DNA of 40,484 bases, taken from positions 1 to 40,484 of the forward strand of contig JBIJBE010000035.1 of assembly GCA_044345405.1 (NCBI GenBank). The letters run 5' to 3'. Positions 29,461-40,150 of this stretch are shown here, one piece after another. The notes under the pieces were generated by a model. It was given only the letters and a program-made list of their open reading frames with translations, had not been told where the DNA came from and ran no database searches. The translations under genes and the position numbers were made by a program. This stretch comes from Bdellovibrionota bacterium. GTDB lineage: Bacteria > Bdellovibrionota_C > UBA2361 > OMII01. Each line of letters begins with the position of its first letter. Position 1 is the first letter of the stretch.

Positions 29461-29648
29461 CACGTGAACGTGCTCATAAACGTGAACGTGAACGTACCCG
29501 AAAAGTTTTCTCGTTTTCGATACTGTTACGAGGATACTGCAGAAAGTTACGCCGTGGACTTCAACCATCTACCGAACACGGCAGATCGGGGTCGGGTACG
29601 TTCACGTTTACGTGCATGTTCACGTTTACGTGCATGTTCACGTTCACG
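29461..29648. repeat. Inverted pair of degenerate CGTGAA hexamer arrays between convergent genes
   Basis: 29461-29501 ends AACGTGAACGTACCCGA and 29592-29648 begins with its exact complement. The right arm contains GTTCACGTTTACGTGCAT twice. Confidence 0.8.
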
Positions 29649-35826: not shown

Positions 35827-36612
35827 GTGGGTATGCTCGCCCTCCTTCTCGGTAGCTTCGTTGGGCTCTCCCTCGGATTAACCGGGGGCGGAGGATCGAT
35901 CTTCGCTGTGCCACTCCTCGTGTATGGTCTGAGCCTCGACTTCCGAGAAGCGGTTACCCTCTCCTTGGCGATCGTAGGCTCTACCGCGCTGTATGGAGCC
36001 ACGATACAGGCCCGTCGCAAAGTCGTGCTGTGGGGAGCGGGAGCGGTCTTGGGGGTCGGCGGTATACTTACAGCCCCACTCGGCGCAACGTTGGGACAAC
36101 GCGTCTCCGAACGCCTTTCACTCATGCTATTCGCCGGACTCATGCTCGTGGTGGGAGTACAGATGATCGCGGGTCGACGCGATATGGTGATAGCCGCGAT
36201 CGCGTGTCAACGAACCCCTCAGGGAGAGCTGCGATTTAGCTGGAGATGCGGAGCGAAACTTCTCACCACGGGTATGATAGCGGGAGTACTCTCAGGGATA
36301 TTCGGAGTTGGAGGGGGATTCCTTCTCGTCCCTACCCTCCTCATGGTAACCGGAATCTCGATCGACAGCGCGATGGCGACCTCGCTCGTCTCTATTGCGC
36401 TGATATCGGCCTCAGGATTCGTCGCGAACCTCGCCAATCTCAATCCTGAGAGGTTCGTTGTCGGAGGCGTTTTCTTGCTCGGCTCTATCGTGGGCATGAC
36501 CCTTGGGGCATCGGTGAAGCGCCACCTCCCTTCGAACACCTTACGAACAATCTTCGGCACGGTGATTATCGTGACGGCGCTTGTGCTTCTGGCGCTCAAT
36601 ACATTTCACTGA
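35827..36612 (+). CDS. Sulfite exporter TauE/SafE family protein
   Basis: GLSLGLTGGGGSI.AVP and SGIFGVGGGFLLVP repeats; A..TSL. Confidence 0.93.
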   Translation: MGMLALLLGSFVGLSLGLTGGGGSIFAVPLLVYGLSLDFREAVTLSLAIVGSTALYGATIQARRKVVLWGAGAVLGVGGILTAPLGATLGQRVSERLSLMLFAGLMLVVGVQMIAGRRDMVIAAIACQRTPQGELRFSWRCGAKLLTTGMIAGVLSGIFGVGGGFLLVPTLLMVTGISIDSAMATSLVSIALISASGFVANLANLNPERFVVGGVFLLGSIVGMTLGASVKRHLPSNTLRTIFGTVIIVTALVLLALNTFH

Positions 36613-36716
36613 GGACAAAAGAACTTTCGCTCGCGCCTCGCCTCACACAACAACAGGAAGAGCGAGAGCATCGAGAGAGGTTGGCCCTCCCTGAAGCCTG
36701 ACCTGAATGCCTATCC

Positions 36717-36777
36717 GTACTTTCTCTCTGTCCCTTTCTCTCTTCTCTCTGTCCCTTCTCTCTGTCCCTGGGCTACC
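36717..36777 (-). repeat. Downstream terminal motif of the HUH element with outward iterations
   Basis: Minus strand GGTAGCCCA-GGGACAGAGAGAA-GGGACAGAGAGAA-GAGAGAAA-GGGACAGAGAGAAA-GTAC. Confidence 0.85.
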
Positions 36778-36873
36778 ATATGAGCAGCGGGTAGAAGCAG
36801 GTCCAATAGCCACGGCAGCTCTGCAGTTCGACTGTGCTCGGTAAGGGACGTAACGCTCTAAAATAGGCTCGGT

Positions 36874-36887
36874 AGATACACGTATCC
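36874..36887. promoter_or_regulatory. Palindromic motif copy 3 (reverse complement GGATACGTGTATCT)
   Basis: AGATACACGTATCC, the exact reverse complement of 24448-24461. Confidence 0.4.
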
Positions 36888-36928
36888 GCCGCGAACCGGA
36901 GATCGCAAAGATAGAATAAAAGAGAAGA

Positions 36929-37915
36929 CTAGTGCCCAATCACGTTAGCAAGCTTCGGCATCGATGGTGGATATAACCCAGGCGGATACGGCACCGTTAC
37001 ATCCCCGAGCTTCCACCTCTCCCGCACTGTCCTAGCCCTCTGCATGAGCGCCTTAAAGAACCCGATAAACTCCACTCGAACTCTGCGCTTCTCTGAAAGG
37101 CACCACATGCGCCGGCCCGATCGCTTGGGTCGATAATTGGTATCGAATACCTGAGAAAGGAGCCGGTCTCTGCCGATCACTCGTTTCTTCTCTCGTACCC
37201 TATTCCTCTCAGCACGTGCCTCAAGGAACCTTATTCGTGCCAGCAGCTTCTCGTTCATCCTCTGCTGCTCCTCCGGTGAGTGATACCCGAACGCCTCAAT
37301 CCATGCGTTAGGTTCAAGGGTAAAGGTTTGCATCTCCCGAGAAACATTAAGTATATCCTCTGCAAGTTTCGTGTATCCCCGTAGGTTATTTGCATCCCGA
37401 GGGATCGGGGTAAACTGGGGTCGCCTGACACGCTTCCATTGACGGGTGAGCTGACCCGATTGAAACATCCTCCAGGAGGAAAACCCTGGGTATCGGTCAA
37501 TAGAGCTCTCTAAGTTATCCTTGGCTGGATTAGAATACAGGTATGCTATCGCTATCAGGGCTCTTAGAGGCGTAAGGACGATCGGGCTATCATAGCCTTC
37601 ACACCAGAGGGTTTTCTTATTTCGCCCCAGGAGTCTGTTAATCATATGAGCTGATTCTGCTTTGAAAAAGCGGAAGAAGGACTCTACGTGGTCGGGGTTT
37701 ATCACCACCATGACTAAGTGGACATGGGTCGCCTCGACGATCATGTGGCAGATCCGCACGGGATACAGCTCGCAAGCCCGTGCGAGGCAGCTTTTAATGA
37801 TCGCCTGACACAGCGGATTAGCAAGCAGCAGCAATCCCTCCTCCACGCTAAAGGTGCAAAACAGCACGCTCCCGTGAGGGTGGTATTTCATCTTCTTTTT
37901 TGACTTAGTTATCAT
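36929..37915 (-). CDS. HUH Y1 nuclease/transposase, RAYT/TIRYT-like (IS200 TnpA fold) with a long C-terminal extension
   Basis: HUH motif H64-V-H66, LW...Y.S, catalytic Y125 in YLYSNP, YPGFSSW (RAYT W/F-SS motif), C-terminal YPPGLYPP. Alternative start at 37891. Confidence 0.9.
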   Translation of the reverse strand: MITKSKKKMKYHPHGSVLFCTFSVEEGLLLLANPLCQAIIKSCLARACELYPVRICHMIVEATHVHLVMVVINPDHVESFFRFFKAESAHMINRLLGRNKKTLWCEGYDSPIVLTPLRALIAIAYLYSNPAKDNLESSIDRYPGFSSWRMFQSGQLTRQWKRVRRPQFTPIPRDANNLRGYTKLAEDILNVSREMQTFTLEPNAWIEAFGYHSPEEQQRMNEKLLARIRFLEARAERNRVREKKRVIGRDRLLSQVFDTNYRPKRSGRRMWCLSEKRRVRVEFIGFFKALMQRARTVRERWKLGDVTVPYPPGLYPPSMPKLANVIGH

Positions 37916-37959
37916 GCACAGCTATTCGGCTGGCGGGGGCGGAAGTTGCGCGGGAAGGT

Positions 37960-38174
37960 GGCGAAAAGTAGCCCAGGTACAGGGCGAAAAAAGTAGCCCA
38001 GGTACAGGGCGAAAAAGTAGCCCAGGTACAGGGCGAAAAAGTAGCCCAGGTACAGGGCGAAAAAAGTAGCCCAGGTACAGGGCGAAAAGTAGCCCAGGTA
38101 CAGGGCGAAAAAAGTAGCCCAGGTACAGGGCGAAAAAGTAGCCCAGGTACAGGGCGAAAAGGTACAGGGCGAAA
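37960..38174 (+). repeat. Tandem array: 8 copies of GTAGCCCAGGTACAGGGCG+A(4-6) plus a terminal half copy
   Basis: Cores start at 37968, 37993, 38017, 38041, 38066, 38089, 38114 and 38138. A-tracts are 6,5,5,6,4,6,5,4. The half unit GGTACAGGGCGAAA is at 38161-38174. Confidence 0.97.
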
Positions 38175-38314
38175 CCGCGCGCGGTCTCTGAGAGAAATAG
38201 TTAGGAAAGCTGCTAGCTGGAATCTTTCGTTTAATCCCGTTGTGGAACACCGATTTAGCTCAAGACAAAAGCGTTCGGAGCCGATCTATCCATGGGACTA
38301 CGAGAATTTAGGAT

Positions 38315-40150
38315 ATGATACGGCACGGGTTAGAGACCTCAAGGCGAGTCACTTGGTGTATCACCGATGCTTCGTATCGTGTCATCATCGTACTACTCTT
38401 AACGTTTTTCTATCAGAGCAGGATAGCTGTTGCGTCCAATTCCCCCGTGTTGAGCGCAGGAGGGAGCCATACGTGTGCTTTGACCTCCCTCAGCGGAGGA
38501 GGCGTCTATTGCTGGGGCTACAATGGCGAGGGGCAGCTCGGGAATGGGACAATTTCCCCAAGCTCCGTACCGGTTCCGGTTAGTGGCATATCCGAAGCCA
38601 CCGCGGTCGCCGCAGGCGGAGACCATTCGTGTGCTATCGTTGAGCCGCTTGGTGGGGTTAAGTGTTGGGGGGCCAATACCTTCGGACAGCTCGGTAACAA
38701 CTCAACCAGTAGTAGCGCAGTCCCTGTTGAGGTAGTTGATCAGTTTCTTCTCCCTTTGACCAGCGTGGTGGAAATTACTGCGGGAACTAGTCATACGTGC
38801 GCTCGATTTTCTACCGGGGGAGTCGTATGTTGGGGGTTGAATTCGTCGGGGCAGTTGGGGGATGGATCTACGACGGATCGACAGGTAGCCACAGCGGTTT
38901 TTGGTTTTGGGAGTGATGTTTCTCAAATTTCAGCTGGATACGCGCATACCTGCCTCGTTCAAACGTCAACGAGCAACGTTTGGTGCTTCGGGGAGAACAT
39001 GTACGGCGCGTTGGGTGACAACAACGCCCCCAATCCACAGTCCGTGCCGGTGGAGGTATTTGGAATCACCACGGCGGAGGCAGTGAGTTCAGGTGACCGT
39101 TTTACGTGTGCGCGGCTCAGTGACGGGGTGGTCGCATGTTGGGGGGCCAACAATTCGGGTAACCTCGGTAACGGCACAACAACCGATAGCTATGTTCCGG
39201 TTTTGGTGAGCGGGGCACCGTACAATGCCTCGATGATAGATACCGGCGGTTCAGGTATTTCTGAAAATTTTGCTTGCGCGGTCCTGGCATCTGGCGGGCA
39301 GGCCCAGTGCTGGGGGACCAGCACGGAAGGAGCTATCGGAAACGGCGTAACAAATCAGGAAACGACACCTGTGAACGTAACAGGGCTCACGTCGGTGGTG
39401 GCGATCACCTCTGGGTCGGCGCATGCCTGCGCATGGACAGGGACATGCTCGATCAAGTGTTGGGGATCTAACTCACTGGGGCAGCTTGGGAATGGCGATC
39501 GAACGAACCATTCTGTCCCTGTTGATGTTGAGTCTTTCAATTGTACCACGACAGATCCAACTCCAACACCGCCTCCGTCCACACCAACACCAGCTCCACC
39601 AACGCCCACACCAGCTCCAGCAACGCCCACACCAGCTCCCGCCGACACCCCACCGGACTCTCCTGGGCAGTCTACGCCTGACGCTTGTCGCTCCGAAAAG
39701 CGTTGCGTTCCGGATGCCTCCCTCACAACGCCTTTGGACCCCAGAGCTCCTCAATTTAATCCTCTCCCCATGCCGAAAGGTTCTAACGTGCCTCTGGCGG
39801 TCAATCCGGTGAAGATTGGAATACCGATCGATGAGACCCAGCGTCAAACGCTCAAGCGCCGATTAGAAAAGCTACTCGGCAAAAAAGTTACGGATCTGGC
39901 GGCAGCGGTTCGTTCGCTTCAGGTATTCTATGTTTTTACCGTTGTTCGCGCCAAGACAACCTCGATAGCAGCGGTAGACGCAACGGCTCTACCAACGAAG
40001 TATCGAGCGGAGACCCGCAGTCGTCGAGTCACAGCCCGTCTTGGCCCAGGTACCTACGTTGCGACGGTTTCTGTCAAAATTAAGACATCCAAGGGGAAGG
40101 TCGTCGCAAGCAGCAAGAAACCTACCTCTACCACGTTTGTGGTTAAATGA
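38315..40150 (+). CDS. Secreted RCC1/ATS1-repeat beta-propeller protein with a PT linker and basic C-terminal domain
   Basis: About 7 repeats of AG..HTCA....G.V.CWG.N..GQLG.G...S..PV.V; PTPTPPPSTPTPAP linker; N-terminal hydrophobic signal. Confidence 0.92.
   Translation: MIRHGLETSRRVTWCITDASYRVIIVLLLTFFYQSRIAVASNSPVLSAGGSHTCALTSLSGGGVYCWGYNGEGQLGNGTISPSSVPVPVSGISEATAVAAGGDHSCAIVEPLGGVKCWGANTFGQLGNNSTSSSAVPVEVVDQFLLPLTSVVEITAGTSHTCARFSTGGVVCWGLNSSGQLGDGSTTDRQVATAVFGFGSDVSQISAGYAHTCLVQTSTSNVWCFGENMYGALGDNNAPNPQSVPVEVFGITTAEAVSSGDRFTCARLSDGVVACWGANNSGNLGNGTTTDSYVPVLVSGAPYNASMIDTGGSGISENFACAVLASGGQAQCWGTSTEGAIGNGVTNQETTPVNVTGLTSVVAITSGSAHACAWTGTCSIKCWGSNSLGQLGNGDRTNHSVPVDVESFNCTTTDPTPTPPPSTPTPAPPTPTPAPATPTPAPADTPPDSPGQSTPDACRSEKRCVPDASLTTPLDPRAPQFNPLPMPKGSNVPLAVNPVKIGIPIDETQRQTLKRRLEKLLGKKVTDLAAAVRSLQVFYVFTVVRAKTTSIAAVDATALPTKYRAETRSRRVTARLGPGTYVATVSVKIKTSKGKVVASSKKPTSTTFVVK

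Follow-up and report, generated by a model that had tools for sequence, protein, structure and literature searches.

A transposon-like unit with inverted, iterated REP-like ends encodes a long RAYT-like HUH enzyme in a Bdellovibrionota genome

The contig JBIJBE010000035.1 of a Bdellovibrionota bacterium (assembly GCA_044345405.1), analysed here in its entirety as a window of 40,484 nucleotides (nt), contains at positions 36721-38174 a transposon-like unit of about 1.45 kb, encoding a long Y1 HUH enzyme of the kind represented by the REP-associated tyrosine transposases (RAYTs; REP, repetitive extragenic palindrome). Inverted, GTAG-tagged, REP-like end units are part of the mobile unit and bound it, and at this locus they are iterated outwards on both sides of the gene. 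The element is one member of a large, diversifying Bdellovibrionota family, in which each protein subfamily has its own cognate end sequence and in which the arrays of end units change faster than point mutations accumulate. We are highly confident of its identity as a mobile RAYT-like element. That it is a RAYT-like transposon whose arrays arise by nicking, extension and resealing at its own ends is a reading to which we give about an even chance.

The element, its ends and its relatives

The Y1 HUH nuclease/transposase gene occupies 36929..37915 on the reverse strand. Its open reading frame (ORF) translates into a protein of 328 amino acids (aa) with the motifs HVH (H64-V-H66), AYLYSNP (containing Y125 and N129) and FSSW; the Y-x-x-x-N-P arrangement is one that we take to be of the RAYT type. 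An alignment of 87 sequences, with relatives at 27-62% identity, shows no variation at H64, H66, W104, Y125 or N129. The Pfam family Y1_Tnp (PF01797) matches the protein at 25.7 bits, against a cut-off of 23, and is also found in 85 of the 87 relatives, and the RAYT model of NCBIfam, REP_Tyr_transpos, matches residues 11-143 at 33.6 bits, below its cut-off of 80. When the profile of the alignment was compared with solved structures, E. coli TnpA_REP (entry 4ER8 of the Protein Data Bank, PDB) came first, with an E value of 2.5e-7, and the transposases of IS608 and ISDra2 were found at about 2e-3. The AlphaFold model is confident throughout (predicted local distance difference test, pLDDT, 95.7; predicted template modelling score, pTM, 0.92). 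Its best structural match by Foldseek is again 4ER8 (E 7.1e-7, template modelling score 0.72 on the target), on which VIA-align aligns 150 residues with a Z-score of 14.8 and a root-mean-square deviation of 2.4, the next chain reaching a Z-score of 7.6; the predicted fold also matches IS608 and ISDra2. The RAYT-like catalytic core, of which residues ~5-266 align to 4ER8, is followed by a helical C-terminus, for the last ~60 residues of which these comparisons gave no convincing match. By the figures given in PMC6006769, the spacing of 59 residues between the HUH motif and the tyrosine is in the common range and not in that of subclass 2.3.

Upstream of the gene, eight full 5'-terminal units stand at 37968..38159 on the forward strand, each consisting of GTAGCCCAGGTACAGGGCG followed by A4-A6 and each with a GTAG tag and a GCCC/GGGC hairpin. 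They are bordered by an outermost partial unit, AGGTACAGGGCGAAA, at 38160..38174 (forward strand), and flanking DNA begins at 38175 (CCGCGC...). Downstream of the gene, one full 3'-terminal unit, GTAGCCCAGGGACAGAGAGAA on the gene strand, lies at 36756..36776 on the reverse strand as the inverted partner of the upstream units. Outside it, at 36721..36755 on the same strand, three partial units are recognised by Tandem Repeats Finder (TRF) and by core pattern matches; they read TTTCTCTCTGTCCC, TTTCTCTC and TTCTCTCTGTCCC on the forward strand and AGGGACAGAGAGA, AGAGAGAA and AGGGACAGAGAGAA on the gene strand. The totals are thus eight full units and one partial upstream, and one full unit and three partials downstream. 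The 15-nt core GTAGCCCAGGKACAG has eight matches on the forward strand, starting at 37968, 37993, 38017, 38041, 38066, 38089, 38114 and 38138, and a single one on the reverse strand, at 36762-36776, with 0 mismatches; 0.06 matches were expected, and none of 100 shuffled sequences reached these nine. On the right, TRF reports a 24-nt period with 8.5 copies (37960-38164, score 362) and a 15-nt period with 2 copies (38145-38174); on the left, it reports a repeat at 36722-36769.

An earlier note, made from the sequence of this stretch alone, had described a 328-aa Y1 HUH gene between inverted, iterated termini, and the ORF, the motif matches and TRF bear this out. Direct reading also agrees with its statement that the two inverted 21-mers are identical at 18 of 21 positions; on both sides, the GTAG end of the 21-mer is directed towards the gene. 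The common register that it had proposed for the extra sub-units holds for the upstream partial and for two of the three downstream partials, which start directly after GTAGCCC(A). Each of the downstream partials retains the outer tail and lacks the inner GTAGCCC part. The left start at 36717 given in the same note was 4-5 nt too far out: the element begins at 36721/36722, and in all four sequencing runs in which the element body was followed, its Logan unitigs have 36721 as their first position.

These four runs are from lake water (2020-2024), and in each of them the element body, 36721-37894, is a single unitig. Its depth relative to flank bins is 1.6-2.3x in runs X1, X8 and X10 and 1.7-3.4x in X12, where the flank bins are at 2.6 and 5.29; a body at about twice the depth of its flanks implies about two copies per genome. 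A second 5' end is indeed present in the assembly. Contig C57 begins inside the first codons of the gene and carries a 5' array of nine full units with one internal partial; this array ends like the one in the window, after which the flank is different. A loose end in one of the runs suggests a 3' flank for the second copy, and that flank is absent from the assembly. In another genome, G070, two copies are 100% identical over 1334 nt, and in their 3' flanks the sequences part company right at the end of the terminal unit. In different genomes, the members of two more pairs (97.5% and 98.4% identical) occupy different sites. The element behaves as a mobile unit.

The flanks of the two copies in G070 deserve a description of their own. 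For one of them (locus L093, G070:C20:1-1955), the DNA just past the 3' terminus is the C-terminal coding part of another HUH gene, which indicates that elements sit beside or inside one another. The 3' flank of the other copy opens with another GTAG palindrome, AGTAGCTGCGCTAC.

An empty site was looked for in the neighbourhood of the tauE gene, which borders the element, in six relatives; other genes were found downstream of tauE, with no RCC1 gene, no HUH gene and no clean empty site, because synteny past tauE is not kept in these six. All exact matches to the end motif in the genome are on the window contig or on C57. A loose pattern gave 21 matches in the search for gene-less copies, six of which were judged to be solo end cores, with no detectable HUH gene nearby: C21:25299, C21:27417, C23:39379, C34:40277, C77:15963 and C26:120555. 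All six are single units, possibly left behind by excision or by the loss of elements.

Relatives of the protein are numerous. Among 90%-identity clusters there are 489 at E<=1e-3, and the best 120 of these 489 are 71-99% identical; a 50%-identity library contains 1009 clusters at E<=1e-3 and 214 at E<=1e-30, nearly all of about 320-335 aa and full-length. A match is present in 81 of the 91 genomes of the host order (49 of the 55 high-quality ones), with up to 24 scored matches per genome, and in-frame stops are rare among the matches. The genome analysed here has 14 matches, which include at least 11 full-length paralogues with 24-83% identity to the query. Among named records, the nearest are metagenome-assembled genomes labelled Bdellovibrionota, and a metagenome scan returned three loci. 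Searches of the openly accessible literature (RAYT in Bdellovibrio; tandem REPtrons) found no description of this family.

The 11 paralogues and the loci fetched for comparison share a common plan: one to many head-to-tail end units, a leader, the ORF, a 60-nt block at its stop codon, some 95 nt of further sequence and an inverted end unit, the last of which is iterated in some loci of the family. The end core could be scored on 199 of 236 sides, the other 37 having no recognisable core. At least two cores were present on 70 of 101 5' sides (with a maximum of 13) and on 31 of 98 3' sides (with a maximum of 5); Fisher's test gives p 1e-7 for this difference, a value that is overstated since the loci are related. 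Among the 91 loci scored on both sides, 25 are iterated at both, 43 at the 5' side only, six at the 3' side only and 17 at neither. Homologues therefore do not have single termini only, 74 of the 91 loci being iterated on at least one side, in agreement with what had been predicted for them. The core itself changes with the protein subfamily (GTAGCCCnGGTACAG, GTAACCCCGGACC, GTTGGGCTGCACC, GAGCCTGGCACC), as expected for cognate recognition.

Origin of the arrays

Comparison of closely related copies shows that the arrays are variable, as the earlier note had anticipated for homologues. The copy in the window has eight full units and one partial and the copy on C57 has nine full units and one partial, whereas their bodies collapse into one k=31 unitig in each of the four runs. 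Both arrays contain A-runs of 6, 5 and 4 followed by the partial unit, and the number of units differs on both sides of this shared part. Other near-identical elements carry six versus two and eight versus two 5' units. In two sister genomes, elements at an orthologous site share the outermost partial unit, and one has three full units where the other has one.

The same observations bear on the most sceptical explanation, that the arrays are artefacts of short-read metagenome assembly and each end really has one unit. The genome is a draft of 3.59 Mb in 85 contigs, of which the window is one entire contig (C52); contig C57 breaks inside the element; and the 205-bp array, the unit number of which is taken from the assembly, probably exceeds a typical short read, the evidence for the array coming from the unitigs of the four runs. 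However, unitigs containing unit-to-unit junctions are found in all four independent runs, at several times the depth of the body, iterated ends occur in dozens of loci from many assemblies, and the sister genomes share insertion site and partial unit and differ by two whole units. An assembly artefact can hardly account for this, and we consider it very improbable. One joint, 38110>38233, seen in a single run, was set aside, as one of its sides is 28 letters long.

The extra pieces in the arrays have a direction. On visual inspection, what partial units have lost is the inner GTAG side, the outer tail being retained, and longer nested pieces start deep inside the element and extend to the outer tip. 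Such pieces reach the first 45 nt of the ORF (C69, L033) or span the whole 3' region (L012, L017, C67, L035, L031), the piece in L012 starting at the stop codon. For counting, arrays were split at core starts and the intervening DNA was classified, a heuristic of our own. In 100 arrays with at least two cores, this parse gives 242 full units, 10 diverged units and 21 unclassified pieces; the latter are mostly diverged tail repeats by eye and were left uncounted. A further 36 extra pieces extend as far as the outer tip: 14 have their start further inside the element, six within the core and two beyond it, and 14 are tail-only. Pieces of the opposite kind amount to one of prefix type and two short units, hence at most three inner-anchored pieces against 36 outer-anchored ones. 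A self-parse of the flanks of the Lempel-Ziv (LZ) type was also tried, but its output was too noisy for counting.

If nicks fell at the outer boundary, pieces would share their outer start and differ in how far they reach inwards, as is seen here. In the scheme that we propose, the outer boundary of an end unit would be nicked on one strand by the enzyme, which would stay attached to the 5' end of the nicked element strand. The 3'-OH of the flank would then be extended by a host polymerase for a short distance into the element, and the enzyme would reseal the bound 5' end onto the new 3'-OH, duplicating the first N bases of the end. Repeats of this cycle, together with resealing between the sites of different units, would build up arrays in which whole units are accompanied by partial pieces, all of these beginning at the outer tip but extending inwards to different depths. 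HUH enzymes are known to leave a 5'-phosphotyrosine link and a free 3'-OH able to prime replication (PMC8266576), and for the amplification of bacterial interspersed mosaic elements (BIMEs), Ton-Hoang et al. 2012 propose cleavage, extension of the 3'-OH and rejoining (Figure 7B of PMC3333891). Our scheme is essentially the same as theirs, simplified here to one cleavage.

The junctions at this locus are compatible with such a reaction. All four irregular junctions of the element read C|T on the outer-to-inner strand, as do the regular junctions between units (CTAC|TTTT); TnpA_REP enzymes cleave C|T on either side of a REP and transfer strands (PMC8266576, PMC3333891). The CA|GG junction that had been noted before is the C|T cut viewed from the opposite strand. 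A general C|T rule was considered and rejected: G|T is found in L022, L016 and L082 and G|C in L067, and the CA|GG junction is accordingly not conserved across the family. The idea that the enzyme cuts and rejoins at the element's own ends therefore fits the junctions of this element, but the junction is not a general one. Nothing in the analysis supports the additional suggestion that the element counts its terminal repeats.

Besides these deviating junctions, several observations weigh against an enzymatic origin. A count of half-sites (exact 7-mers of the inner and outer core halves) reveals no asymmetry, the outer half being in excess on 30 sides and the inner half on 41; on inspection, most partials have their start in the last 3 nt of the core (CAG) or past them, and single-nucleotide polymorphisms and contig ends dominate these counts. 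The asymmetry shows only in the heuristic unit parse, which treats related loci as independent and has 21 unclassified pieces. Tail-only duplications make up many of the partial pieces; they lie in purine-rich, low-complexity sequence, where slippage would suffice to produce them. Every junction has a T-run as acceptor, hence at least 1 nt of microhomology is always present, and A-runs bound whole units on both sides, a classic slippage substrate. The amplification reading is, moreover, built on footprints in the sequence and on unitigs only.

Replication slippage and unequal recombination would make the arrays without any part played by the transposase, the element still being a RAYT-like transposon. 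A polymerase stalling at the small hairpins would realign on the A/T runs or on the purine-rich tail, duplicating units and parts of units. Read from inner to outer, A-runs flank every unit, the leader already ending in GGCGAAAA beside the first GTAG, and their length varies from 3 to 9 between units, and between runs. The recurrence of the 6, 5, 4 pattern on C57 represents a higher-order block duplication; 14 of the 36 classified extra pieces are tail-only; and the naive half-site count is symmetric, all of which slippage would explain. It predicts no fixed anchor, however, and the 22 pieces that are not tail-only, starting at varied points in the core or up to more than 130 nt inside the element, all reach the outer tip, with at most three of the opposite kind. 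Microhomology at the junctions is just ~1 nt, near-identical ends have strongly unequal array frequencies (70/101 versus 31/98), and the six solo ends, a small sample, are all single. We regard slippage as a serious but rather unlikely explanation.

The 5' excess in those frequencies could also reflect selection and not mechanism, a further point against the enzymatic reading. Arrays might be kept since they are useful to the element, whatever mutation makes them. Stacked units of hairpin and T-run would stop incoming transcription from neighbours, chiefly upstream of the transposase promoter; alternatively, the enzyme would bind at many units, which would then resemble the iterons of Rep proteins. 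On the gene-sense strand, the 5' unit folds as GCCC/GGGC followed by UUUUU (-7.5 kcal/mol, z -2.48); folding of the 3' unit gives no good hairpin. In every subfamily of this genome, the end motif is followed by a T-run that lies immediately before the conserved leader; 5' sides have arrays more often, and longer ones, than 3' sides; and REPs have been reported to act as terminators and insulators (PMC3333891). These features would suit a transcriptional role, yet a terminator scan found none in the arrays, the stems of which have 4-5 pairs only. Copy number ranges from 1 to 13 and is unequal between near-identical copies, which resembles drift and not a tuned number, partial units and nested pieces have no obvious use, and 17 of the 91 loci are single on both sides. 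Maintenance by selection thus seems improbable.

Weighing these explanations together, we would place an enzyme-driven origin of the arrays a little short of an even chance. A more far-reaching proposal is that these are autonomous, currently active RAYT-type transposons, a mobile form absent from domesticated REPtrons. The nested, outer-anchored duplications would then be footprints of abortive strand displacement from protein-linked nicks, one per end and on opposite strands; completed two-end events would copy the element out, and aborted ones would add units. This proposal is tentative, and we hold it to be unlikely as a whole.

Leader, 3' region and neighbouring DNA

Between the first 5' unit and the gene lies a 5' leader (37916..37967, reverse strand), with a motif common to all subfamilies in the genome, as seen in the upstream regions of the 11 paralogues and in the fetched loci. 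On the gene strand, it consists of GCAACTT (37943-37949), a gap of about 13-17 nt and CCGAATAG (37922-37929), and the leader terminates in GGCGAAAA, adjoining the first GTAG. The consensus GCAAC(T/A)(T/C), ~13-17 nt, (C)CGA(A)TAG is present just before the start codon in all 11 paralogues, even at ~25% identity. The motif is a possible candidate promoter, presumably resembling one for an alternative sigma factor (of the extracytoplasmic function, ECF, or sigma-28 type) more than a sigma-70 promoter; a sigma-70 promoter scan gave no site within the leader.

On the other side of the gene, a conserved 60-nt block starts from the stop codon (36872..36931, reverse strand; ...TTTGCGATCTCCGGTTCGCGG..ACGTGTATCTAC), as derived from the consensus of 40 aligned 3' regions. 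It is kept at the nucleotide level in loci L001-L071 and in the paralogues of this genome, though the proteins are just 70-85% identical, and it may serve as an additional recognition site or as an RNA. A search of Rfam gave no match at E<=1 within 36500-38400. The block is followed by a stretch of ~95 nt that reaches to the 3' terminus (36777..36871, reverse strand), and in the same alignment the length of this stretch is conserved and its sequence varies among paralogues. In the L053 copy, found at another site in a metagenome and encoding a 98% identical protein, it is completely different. Folded as single-stranded DNA, the 3' region has no significant fold (z 0.32 and 1.37); by eye, small locus-specific hairpins seem to be present in the variable stretch of the 40-sequence alignment.

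The spacer between tauE and the element (36613-36721) includes a short sequence that is present in several copies. At 36684-36754, unitig depth rises to as much as 10x that of the flank, unitigs have loose ends at 36683 and 36721, and a copy with 82-90% similarity is located at C57:6568-6693, ~6 kb from the second element end. Beyond the 5' array, the gene at 38315-40150 (forward strand) encodes an RCC1-repeat protein with a proline/threonine-rich linker, which is encoded by 21-nt tandem repeats (39557-39654). Further away, at 29462-29648, runs of ACGT-containing hexamers form 2.7 copies of an 18-nt period (GTTCACGTTTACGTGCAT).

Comparison with known systems

How RAYT enzymes spread and amplify REPs is an unsolved question in the field. 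The E. coli enzyme is active in vitro, no REPtron has been seen moving, and the authors call for an in vivo system (PMC3333891). The family described here offers RAYT-like enzymes that apparently move as units, many diverged pairs of enzyme and end inside single genomes, and end arrays that change faster than point mutations accumulate; its directional end footprint makes the long-proposed amplification mechanism testable. It also adds a large clade of proteins of ~325 aa with an uncharacterised C-terminal region. Should the elements be active transposons, they would provide the first natural in vivo record of the amplification by cleavage, extension and rejoining proposed for the spread of REPs and BIMEs, and a tractable test system.

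Class 3 HuH-Y1 proteins, which resemble both insertion sequences (IS) and REPtrons, likewise have several related genes per genome and several structured flanking repeats (Quentin 2018, PMC6006769). In a comparison made by description, that class is defined by Y----Q and its own core profile, whereas the present family has Y-x-x-x-N-P. With the IS200/IS605 elements IS608 and ISDra2, the element has in common a Y1 HUH transposase, hairpin ends (recognised as single strands in those elements) and the state of a mobile multicopy unit. The IS200/IS605 elements, however, have subterminal hairpins without terminal inverted repeats, make both cuts on one strand and encode proteins of 130-150 aa, in contrast to the 18/21 inverted termini and 328 aa here; their matches to the protein are also weaker than that of 4ER8 (E ~2e-3 versus 2.5e-7, Z 7.6 versus 14.8).

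The earlier note had placed the enzyme near the RAYT relatives called TIRYT, the genes of TIRtrons (Di Nocera 2013, PMC3733652), which Quentin 2018 equates with subclass 2.1 (PMC6006769). TIRtrons do share the arrangement of a RAYT-like gene between terminal inverted repeats (TIRs), and their TIRs are single, dimers or groups (PMC3733652). All members of subclass 2.1 are reported to carry a C-terminal helix-turn-helix (HTH) domain, Bac_DnaA_C, HTH_23 or HTH_28 (PMC6006769), and at E<=0.01 none of the 87 family members has any of these Pfam domains. Furthermore, the ends here are GTAG-tagged, REP-like hairpins, whereas the ends of TIRtrons are described as 'unrelated to REPs' (PMC3733652). Under the Pfam domain criterion, the TIRYT label is not sustained. 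The GGGGWSAS core of TIRtrons, to which the ends had been likened, is approximated by AGGGACAG at 7/8 and by AGGTACAG at 6/8 positions, but neither terminus contains an exact match.

The E. coli REPtron, also the subject of Nunvar 2010 and Messing 2012, has much in common with the element. Its enzyme, TnpA_REP, shares the catalytic fold of the protein described here and heads the matches in the PDB (4ER8; Ton-Hoang 2012, PMC3333891; Corneloup 2021, PMC8266576), and GTAG-tagged hairpin repeats, inverted and variable in number, are found on both sides of its gene. Tandem amplification of repeats beside a RAYT gene, and a model of cleavage, extension and rejoining, are already in print for the REPtron (PMC3333891), and to call the present locus an undescribed system, as had been suggested, was too strong. 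The two differ in several respects. The protein has 328 aa here and 165 aa in E. coli TnpA_REP, and its C-terminus is unmatched; the units are single hairpins in head-to-tail order, whereas the REPtron has inverted pairs (BIMEs). REPs of REPtrons are dispersed genome-wide in many copies, and dispersed REPs are almost absent from this genome. Finally, the E. coli REPtron is single-copy, vertically inherited and reportedly non-transposing, and many diverged paralogues per genome, together with identical copies at different sites, indicate that here, unlike in E. coli, the whole unit moves. The element works like a REPtron, but departs from it in two traits, dispersed REPs and single-copy immobility.

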